This document shows positions 6,637-8,930 of a stretch of DNA of 64,000 nt, piece after piece (the first letter of the stretch is position 1; each line of letters opens with the position of its first letter). This stretch comes from Candidatus Microgenomates bacterium (GTDB lineage: Bacteria > Patescibacteriota > Microgenomatia > UBA1406 > GWC2-37-13), in assembly GCA_025451885.1 (NCBI GenBank), contig JANWJL010000034.1, positions 13,149 to 77,148 on the forward strand, given 5' to 3'. The position numbers and the translations under genes were made by a program. The notes below the pieces were generated by a model, which was not told where the DNA came from, ran no database searches, and saw nothing but the letters and a program-made list of their open reading frames with translations.

Positions 6637-7884
6637 ATGAAAACTCTACAGCCATTACGTGGCTTCAGAGACATCTATCCTAAAGAAAAAGGTGTCCAGA
6701 GATTCATTTACGAGACAGTGCAAAAAGTTGCAGATGAGCTCGGCTATGAATCCTACGACGGGCCTGTTGTTGAGCCTATGGACCTATATATTAATAAGAC
6801 TTCGGAAGAACTTCTCAATCGTCAGACCTTTCAGATCAAAGACAAGAAAGATCAGACTCTTGTTCTGCGCCCGGAGATGACACCGACACTTGCACGGATG
6901 ATAGCAACAAAAGCAGGCGAGCTTACTCTTCCTTTGAAGCTTTTTAATTTCGGTCTAAGATTTCGGTACGAAGCTCCTCAAAAAGGACGCTCCCGCGAAT
7001 TTAACCAAGCTGACTTCGACATTCTGGGAGGAGAACAGCTTATTACGGATGCTGAAATACTTAAAACTCTTGTGGAGTTATTTTTATCTCTAGGATCAAC
7101 TCAAAGAGACTTTAAAATTTTGATAAGTTCCCGAGACCTATTAAATAAAATCCTTATAAGAGAAGGTCTTTCTGAAAAAACTATTCCTTCGTTGCTGAAG
7201 ATCATCGATGATGTTGACAAGATAAGTGACAAAGAGTTAGATAGCAGATTAAATAAATTGGGTTTGACTAAGGAAGACTATTCTAGAATCATATCTTCGA
7301 AAATCAAACCTAAAGATAGCGAATACTTCGATAAATTATTAGATTTACTAGGTCAGTACGGAATCCGAGATTTTATAGATATAAACCTTTCTGTAGTACG
7401 AGGTCTGGATTACTATACAGATCTTGTGTTCGAAGTCAAAGATTTAGGTGAAATTAAGCGCTCATTAGGTGGAGGAGGCAGATATAAAAATCTCGTTTCT
7501 GAATATAATTCAAAAGTAAATGTTTCAGGTGTTGGATTTGCTGTATCCGACGTAATGATTGAAGAATTTCTTCGAGAAAAAAATCTATTACCTGAAATTT
7601 CAACAAAAAAAACACAAGTATTAGTAACTGTTTTCCCTGATTTGCTCAACGAGTCTGTAAATGCCGTTAAAAAACTCAGAGAGAATGATATTTCTTCGGA
7701 ACTTTATCTTGAATCCGATAAGAAATTGGATAAACAACTAAAGTATGCGGATAAAAACAAAATTCCATATGTCCTGCTGATCGGGAACGAAGAAAAAGAA
7801 AAAAACGTTGTAAAACTTAAAAACATGAAAGAGCGGACTGAAGAAACACTTACGTTAAACGAGGTGGTTAAAAAACTCTCTTAA
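6637..7884 (+). CDS. hisS: histidine--tRNA ligase
   Basis: 'LRGFRDIYP' N-terminus, class II motif 2 '[23 protein letters not shown]', motif 3 'GGGGRYKNL', and a C-terminal anticodon-binding domain 'QVLVTVFPD...[11 protein letters not shown]'. Confidence 0.85.
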
Positions 7885-7891
7885 TATACTT

Positions 7892-8587
7892 ATGCAGGTT
7901 AATCCGAATGTTGTTGTTATTGAAGCGCTCCCGGGAGTAGGGGGAGATGAGTCAAAGCTCTGGGCAAAAGAGCTTCTTCTTTCTTATATAAGGTTCGCTC
8001 AACGAAAAAACTTTAAATACGCCTATCTTGAGGAGAACATCATAAGAATAAGTGGTGAAGGAGCGTACAACTTCTTCAAAAATGAAACAGGTGTGCATAG
8101 AGTTCAACGGATTCCGGAAACCGAAAGAAAGGGAAGAATCCACACCTCTACCTGTGTAATGGTTGCTTTGCCTCAGATTACACAATCTGATGTAAGAATC
8201 AGTCCAAGCGATATCGAATGGCAGTTTTACAGGGCTGGCGGACATGGAGGACAGAATGTCAATAAAGTCTCAACCGCTGTACGGCTGACCCATAAACCCA
8301 GTGGAATAGTAGTCACAGCAAGCCGTGAGCGCTATCAGGAGGCAAACCGAAAGATCGCGATGGATCTTTTGCTCGGAAAGCTTTACCAACTTGAGGAAGA
8401 AAAGAAAAAAGGAATGATCTTTTCATATGTCCAAAATATTGGATCCGGTGAACGTGCAGATAAAATAAGAACCTATAATTTTCCTCAAAACCGGCTTACA
8501 GATCATAGACTTGGCAAAAGTTTCCACAATCTGGAAGACGTAATTGCTCAGGGAAAATGGGACAAAGTGTTTACATACGCCTCCTAA
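7892..8587 (+). CDS. prfA: peptide chain release factor 1, short form lacking the N-terminal domain 1
   Basis: RF1-type codon-recognition tripeptide PET in '[19 protein letters not shown]', 'GVGGDES' helix tip, GGQ in '[22 protein letters not shown]', and C-terminal '[21 protein letters not shown]'. It is only 231 aa and begins at the equivalent of domain 2. Confidence 0.75.
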
Positions 8588-8598: not shown

Positions 8599-8630
8599 TA
8601 AGGTCTCGCGTTAGCTAATTATTTATGAAT

Positions 8631-8930
8631 ATGAAACAAGGAATTCACCCAAAATATTTTGATGATGCGCAGGTGGTTTGTGCCTGCGGAAATACGTTTA
8701 CTACGCGATCGATCAAACAAAACATCAGGGTAGACGTCTGTGCCCGCTGTCACCCTTACTTTACCGGAGAACACCGCTTTATAGACACAAAAGGACGTGT
8801 TGAAAATTTCCAGGCAAAACAAAAGAGAGCCGAGGAGATGAAGGCGCGGATTTCGACCAAAAAAGCTCAGAATAAAATCAATAAGGATTTACAGGCAAAA
8901 TCCCTTAAAGAATTGCTTAACGACCTCTAA
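8631..8930 (+). CDS. rpmE: 50S ribosomal protein L31
   Basis: 'MKQGIHPKY...CACGNTF...CARCHPYFTG' is the L31 signature with a CxxC zinc knuckle. Start at 8631 aligns with the usual MK.GIHP N-terminus; an in-frame ATG at 8625 is the alternative. Confidence 0.9.
   Translation: MKQGIHPKYFDDAQVVCACGNTFTTRSIKQNIRVDVCARCHPYFTGEHRFIDTKGRVENFQAKQKRAEEMKARISTKKAQNKINKDLQAKSLKELLNDL

Follow-up and report, generated by a model that had tools for sequence, protein, structure and literature searches.

A release factor 1 without domain 1 in a Microgenomatia bacterium and its relatives

Release factor RF1 touches the L11 stalk with its domain 1, the part that also triggers the exchange of nucleotide on RF3. 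The window analysed here, a stretch of 64,000 nucleotides from a Candidatus Microgenomates bacterium, carries a prfA gene whose product is only 231 aa long. Its preliminary description took the product for a housekeeping RF1 that lacks the entire domain 1. Is it the ordinary RF1 of this bacterium, and what has it lost?

We found neither a full-length RF1 nor a separate domain-1 gene in the genome, and the family scores rank RF1 over RF2 and far over PrfH, so the main claim of that description stands. The product is very probably an ordinary RF1, the sole reader of UAG and also a reader of UAA, that has domain 1 cleanly deleted from its N terminus and works as a protein of domains 2-4.

The gene and the extent of its deletion

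The gene starts with ATG and ends with TAA (Table 1). Upstream of the ATG, at most 11 more in-frame codons precede a stop, which makes a total open frame of 242 aa. The RF1 N terminus stands about 7 residues ahead of the first strand of domain 2. There is no room for a domain-1 exon, as had been argued from the sequence, since the upstream hisS is complete and its anticodon-binding domain is matched up to residue 414 of 415. On the other side, rpmE is followed by rplJ, rplL and gyrB. The residues given beforehand for PET and GGQ were also right. The RF1 gene is indeed the sole release factor gene of the window, and a full-length RF2 gene lies elsewhere in the genome.

No Shine-Dalgarno sequence is visible at the RF1 start (window 7882-7894). 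The same segment, TAATATACTTATG, holds a -10-like TATACT box 3 nt 5′ of the prfA ATG and overlapping the hisS stop codon. This box fits a separate remark by an earlier reader on leaderless or coupled starts.

Table 1. Features of the prfA locus and two further genes of the genome (positions are those of the window unless a contig is named)
Feature	Position	Strand	Evidence or remark
prfA, RF1 of domains 2, 3 and 4, no domain 1 (231 aa)	7892-8587	+	ORF, Pfam, RF1 HMM, AlphaFold2 (AF2) model, structural matches
G17-G18-D19-E20, helix alpha5 tip	7940-7951	+	Invariant in 30 short RF1s; aligns to GGEE of T. maritima RF1
E-N-I, residues 50-52, approximate site of the 8-residue part of the domain-2 hairpin deletion	8039-8047	+	Gaps in the 1rq0 alignment
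P75-E76-T77, RF1 PxT 'tripeptide anticodon'	8114-8122	+	P75 and T77 invariant; flanks HRVQRIP...GRIHTS conserved
G119-G120-Q121, peptidyl-tRNA hydrolysis motif	8246-8254	+	Invariant; inside the RF-1 domain match
hisS, complete	6637-7884	+	Ends 7 nt 5′ of the RF1 start, in another frame
rpmE (L31)	8625-8930	+	Downstream neighbour of prfA
prfB, RF2 (337 aa), SPF motif, full PCRF domain	G000 contig C9:40833-41846 (L001:901-1914)		
SmpB	C1:40788-41213		Present in the genome

The Pfam PCRF profile is matched at its positions 101-192 of 194 only, whereas the RF-1 domain (PF00472) is complete (3-116 of 116, E = 2.9e-35). Likewise, the NCBIfam RF1 model is matched at positions 106-334 of 347 and unmatched at positions 1-105. 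Residues 8-226 of the protein align with residues 88-316 of the T. maritima RF1 (1rq0) with gaps of 2 and 8 residues in domain 2, and residues 10-226 with 113-340 of the E. coli RF1. The N-terminal helical domain 1, the part in contact with the L11 stalk and RF3, is missing.

The preliminary description counted about 113 absent N-terminal residues and a segment between the GGDE tip and PET about 12 residues shorter than in E. coli. It was right in that the whole domain 1 is gone, but about 103 of the residues missing relative to canonical RF1 are N-terminal and the other 10 belong to the domain-2 hairpin. The segment is shortened as claimed but by 10 residues, the spacing from GGxE to GxHRVQR being 50 in the short RF1 vs 60 in canonical RF1. 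All short forms have the hairpin deletion, but so do half of the intermediate-length (mid) forms and one family whose RF1 is full-length, so the two losses are not linked.

Family, fold and the probable reader of UAG

RF1 is the top-scoring family with 255.7 bits, followed by RF2 with 177.1, PrfH with 70.6 and ArfB with 58.6. The RF1 scores are yet below the equivalog cut-offs (255.7 vs 400 for NF001859 and 248.6 vs 423.25 for TIGR00019), because the first 105 model positions have no counterpart. The GGDE tip, PET, HTS, GGQ and the switch loop are all kept, and the RF1 decoding and catalytic elements are invariant in 30 homologues. In the PxT decoding loop (residues 69-86), Q72, R73, P75, T77, H84, T85 and S86 are invariant among them, while the x of PxT is free to vary, as it is across RF1, and is E, K, V, Q, T, A or another residue in the relatives. 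The helix alpha5 tip, which reads the first stop-codon base (U), has its G-x-x-E.

An AF2 model of the protein has a pLDDT of 76 and a pTM of 0.76, its weak parts being confined to the GGQ loop and the switch loop. Its top structural matches are RF1; the closed crystal forms (1rq0, 1zbt and 1gqe) and the pre-accommodated 6orl reach TM scores of 0.72-0.75, and the open ribosome-bound forms about 0.5. The predicted fold is that of release factor domains 2-4, so the model indicates that domains 2, 3 and 4 are intact. As judged from its sequence, the protein descends from RF1 and probably works like RF1, but two formal features of the family are missing, domain 1 and scores above the curated cut-offs.

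A specialised paralogue, such as a PrfH-like or ArfB-like rescue factor, had been offered as the alternative to a housekeeping RF1. With its 231 aa the protein is just as long as the solved PrfH chain 9mor_A, which likewise has no domain 1, and NCBI labels the relatives 'peptide chain release factor-like protein'. However, the PrfH HMM gives 70.6 bits against its cut-off of 166.65 (TIGR03072), and the PDB PrfH chain aligns only to residues 102-197 (E = 1e-13). For ArfB, 58.6 bits stand against a cut-off of 100 (NF006718), and the full C-terminal half of PCRF is present. PxT and every RF1 decoding residue are there, the gene neighbours are hisS and rpmE, and the genome has no match to RtcB (PF01139). 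No other RF1 would serve the 20% of stops that are TAG. We therefore reject the paralogue, whose probability we regard as minute.

The genome (847 kb, 36 contigs) has two genes with the RF-1 domain in whole-genome scans with PF00472 and PF03462, namely this prfA and prfB for RF2. The scans found no second or full-length prfA and no split gene. The genome is 90% complete, and the absence of a second prfA, of prfC and of prmC is accordingly not absolute for this single genome; surveys across the order and the phylum support it. As to a separate domain-1 gene, the PCRF HMM matches only the RF1 and RF2 genes, and tblastn with four domain-1 sequences from class relatives against the genome reaches a best E of 0.025 over 24 residues.

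UAG is a common stop in this genome. The stops were counted on 561 ORFs that do not overlap and have 200 aa or more, together 76% of the genome; 308 end with TAA, 138 with TGA and 115 (20%) with TAG. Because there is no other RF1-type gene, the short RF1 is the only candidate reader of UAG, with RF2 as its partner. ARAGORN finds 43 tRNAs in the genome and none of them has a CUA, UCA or UUA anticodon against stop codons. Reassignment of TAG was considered and is rejected, as there is no suppressor tRNA and TAG ends so many long ORFs.

Domain 1 might instead be supplied in trans: either its coding sequence has been split off to another locus, or an unrelated protein takes over the docking of the short RF1 at the L11 stalk. 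Such a helper would fit the kept N-terminal domain of L11, and sequence searches could miss domain 1, a helical bundle of low conservation. The PCRF and tblastn searches above speak against it, as does the lack of any conserved extra gene between hisS, prfA and rpmE. Moreover, the N-terminally truncated E. coli RF1 requires no partner, in the account given by PMC1586002. We consider the supply in trans highly unlikely.

A few observations on the two factors and the tRNAs were made along the way. The RF2 gene is one uninterrupted 337-aa frame with no programmed +1 frameshift site, the site that autoregulates prfB in most bacteria. RF1 (window 8216-8314) and RF2 (L001:1537-1635) share 33 consecutive identical residues around GGQ. 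Such identity is usual for domain 3. Most third codon positions differ between the two DNAs there, so recent gene conversion is rejected; the pattern indicates strong shared constraint or an ancient conversion. ARAGORN found no tmRNA gene in the genome although SmpB is present, and a tRNA-Ile with the anticodon UAU is among the tRNAs.

Distribution, origin and selection

A search of 5.8 billion proteins gave hundreds of matches of 225-236 aa with 77-92% identity. Many of the short RF1 matches come from 'Candidatus Roizmanbacteria' assemblies and bear the NCBI name quoted above. In the order, we sampled 101 genomes from 3 families and 55 genera. None of the 101 has an RF1 above the family cut-off and nearly all have two class-I release factor matches. 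The RF1-type matches listed span about 110-345 of the model, their open frames measuring about 230-260 aa, and the remaining matches are RF2 of about 340 aa. In the phylum, 253 of 401 genomes have a full-length RF1 above the cut-off.

The preliminary description had named an assembly error as a way to be wrong. An assembly, binning or sequencing error could have removed the 5′ part of prfA, the genome being a draft of 36 contigs. But the locus is internal to a contig of 100 kb, at 8 kb into the window, and hisS and rpmE on either side of it are intact. The same boundary also recurs in over 100 genomes that are independent of one another and in metagenome contigs of several origins. Since every sampled genome of the order shares the short form, such an error is excluded for practical purposes.

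For the class, we took 72 loci from the class sample and 4 more from the order of the window, and these 76 loci gave 75 RF1 genes, or 76 with the window gene. The number of residues ahead of the first domain-2 strand is trimodal among these genes, with no intermediates. Full forms have 110-133 residues there (9 genes, three families), mid forms, shorter by about 50, have 59-83 (28 genes) and short forms 2-27 (39 genes). One gene (G548) was called mid by its first start, a spurious upstream start in Lys-rich junk, and was counted short from its real start MNPNIV. Thus, the survey of related lineages that had been suggested finds the short form in the order sample and three discrete sizes in the class.

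In a tree built from domains 2-4, 35 of the short sequences cluster together with an SH-aLRT of 85, while one short family (f165) and the genome G533 stand apart on long branches. Monophyly of the 39 short sequences together is not rejected by an AU test (p = 0.435), and the domain-less RF1 may have had a single origin. Outside the class, at least one short RF1 occurs in another family (G425, model 100-345, open frame of 257 aa) and one mid form in the genome G180.

Several variants were noted among the surveyed genes. A short RF1 of the same class (L072, G506:C19:51615-53288, minus strand), downstream of hisS and rpmE, has GGH for GGQ (YRASSHGGHNVQKV), which may be genuine or stem from a single wrong base in the metagenome assembly. 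In another Patescibacteria genome (G452:C11:18278-19550), RF1 comes in two pieces, matching the model at 5-234 and 235-358 about 210 nt apart, with a TAG within the first piece; it may be an insertion or a split gene. Short 48-aa frames beside the short prfA of two genomes (G508:C9:5505-5600 and G510:C38:3805-3909) repeat the last 32 or so residues of RF1 (model 315-349) and look like small duplications of the prfA 3′ end. In the phylum sample, one genome of 100% completeness (G157) has a single class-I release factor match genome-wide, a 371-aa frame with 282 bits to the RF1 model, and may represent a one-factor, recoded lineage.

The closest relative found has an RF1 of 91% identity and the same gene order of hisS, prfA, rpmE, rplJ, rplL and gyrB. 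Against this relative, dN is 0.052 for prfA, compared with 0.043 for L12, 0.096 for L31 and 0.105 for L10. Against the same-family orthologues, dN of prfA is 0.18-0.19. Even in these comparisons dS is saturated, so dN values only are compared and there is no finite dN/dS. By this measure prfA is as constrained as the ribosomal-protein genes.

Proposed termination with a short RF1 and no RF3

No prfC for RF3 was found in the genome, where the top matches are EF-G and other GTPases with less than 200 bits. The same holds for all 151 Patescibacteria genomes of at least 90% completeness, while seven prfC-bearing control genomes were all detected. A match to prmC is likewise missing from the genome. 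L11 is present with both of its domains, including the N-terminal one, and RRF is present as well.

The preliminary description expected altered termination or recycling from the short RF1, and this has to be qualified. RF3 is found in none of the 151 Patescibacteria, most of which have a full-length RF1, so recycling is RF3-independent throughout the phylum and the domain-1 loss is a later step at the level of the class. RF3 loss as a sufficient cause of the domain-1 loss is therefore rejected, and it is permissive only. That RF3 is absent from small genomes was noted in the paper introducing PrfH (PMC1586002).

PrmC is the GGQ methyltransferase, and the methylation boosts the release activity. 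A clear PrmC (at least 173 bits) is encoded in 11 of 73 class genomes, eight times adjoining prfA. All the 11 have a mid-length RF1, and the lineages with full-length RF1 are also without PrmC. The PrmC loss is thus rejected as a specific companion of the domain-1 loss.

The same domain has been deleted from the E. coli RF1 by Mora, Zavialov, Ehrenberg and Buckingham (2003, Mol Microbiol 50:1467), a study cited in PMC1586002 and PMC6514570. As summarized in PMC1586002, its N-terminally truncated RF1 keeps its codon specificity and in vitro release unchanged and works in vivo, while the N-terminal domain is required for stimulating the nucleotide exchange on RF3. The same summary has it that the N-terminal domain seemingly matters more in RF2 than in RF1. 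This matches the retention of domain 1 by RF2 here.

A weakened RF1, tolerated by a slow-growing symbiont with slow or leaky termination at UAG, is another explanation. The E. coli RF1 depends on L11, and ribosomes without L11 are poor substrates for it, according to a reviewer's remark in PMC1586002; in addition, PrmC is missing here. However, TAG is not avoided at 20% of stops, the purifying selection on RF1 is as strong as on the ribosomal proteins, and the short form persists in at least 55 genera. A weakened factor is accordingly quite unlikely.

For the ordinary RF1 of domains 2-4 that we favour, we infer activity, codon specificity, kinetics and RF3-independent release. Its domain 2/4 module would read the stop codon via the GGDE tip, PET and conserved Gln and Thr, and the switch loop would open the factor. 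Domain 3 would then place GGQ in the peptidyl-transferase centre, where peptidyl-tRNA would be hydrolysed with an unmethylated GGQ. RF1 would then come off spontaneously, with no need of RF3, and recycling of the ribosome would fall to RRF and EF-G. The phylum-wide lack of RF3 may have made domain 1 dispensable, as a permissive condition only. In this RF3-less phylum, one large lineage would have shed domain 1 of RF1, while RF2 kept its own. Against this reading, L11 is kept with its N-terminal domain, so the stalk contact may still be relevant.

It is unlikely, although worth keeping in sight, that the pared-down termination of Microgenomatia (a domain-1-less RF1, RF3 absent and PrmC mostly absent) depends on a co-adapted ribosome or an unrecognised partner. 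The co-adapted parts may be the L11/L7-L12 stalk and 23S H43-44. If so, the factor would enter and exit the A site independently of the stalk, and on canonical ribosomes the short RF1 would not work or would act in another way. The three N-terminal sizes of RF1 would then be preserved steps of the transition.

Domain 1 of class-I release factors has been deemed non-essential from one set of E. coli deletion experiments, and here evolution has made the same deletion. It is kept under strong selection in a large clade, and in RF1, not in RF2. The short RF1 thus offers a natural test case for the role of domain 1 and its L11 contact, for the release factor exit without RF3 and for the dispensability of GGQ methylation. 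Annotation pipelines label the short prfA 'release factor-like', so that the genomes can seem prfA-less. An RF1 of domains 2-4 is also a compact scaffold for termination engineering.

Our full-text literature searches turned up no account of an RF1 devoid of domain 1 in CPR bacteria. The present analysis contributes the three discrete RF1 length classes, the separate deletion in the domain-2 hairpin, the AU test of a single origin and the count of TAG stops, together with the surveys for RF3 across the phylum and for PrmC across the class.

Among the known systems, the canonical RF1 (PrfA; TIGR00019 and NF001859; T. maritima 1RQ0, T. thermophilus and E. coli) is collinear with the short RF1 in domains 2, 3 and 4. 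The two share the GGxE tip, PxT, HTS, GGQ and the switch loop, with 38-40% pairwise identity in structural alignments, and in both cases a lone RF1-type gene stands beside RF2 in a genome that uses TAG stops. Unlike the canonical RF1, the short one is without the N-terminal residues and the hairpin residues counted above and scores below the cut-offs. Its setting differs too, with prmC neither adjacent nor distant and no RF3 in the genome.

The RtcB-associated PrfH (RFH; TIGR03072) resembles the short RF1 in its size of about 200-230 aa, its lack of domain 1 and its GGQ. However, PrfH has altered decoding motifs and its gene always follows an rtcB-like gene, whereas the short RF1 has an intact PxT and its gene follows hisS in a genome without RtcB. 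The rescue factors of the ArfB and ICT1 type share the GGQ domain 3, and their model NF006718 matches residues 98-134 only. They have a basic C-terminal tail and no decoding domain 2/4, whereas the short RF1 has the full decoding module.

A further system is the laboratory truncation of the E. coli RF1, from which the same domain was removed and which, as far as its published summary goes, is active but does not stimulate the nucleotide exchange on RF3. In contrast to that protein, the short RF1, known from its sequence, is natural, fixed in a large clade and set in a background free of both RF3 and PrmC.
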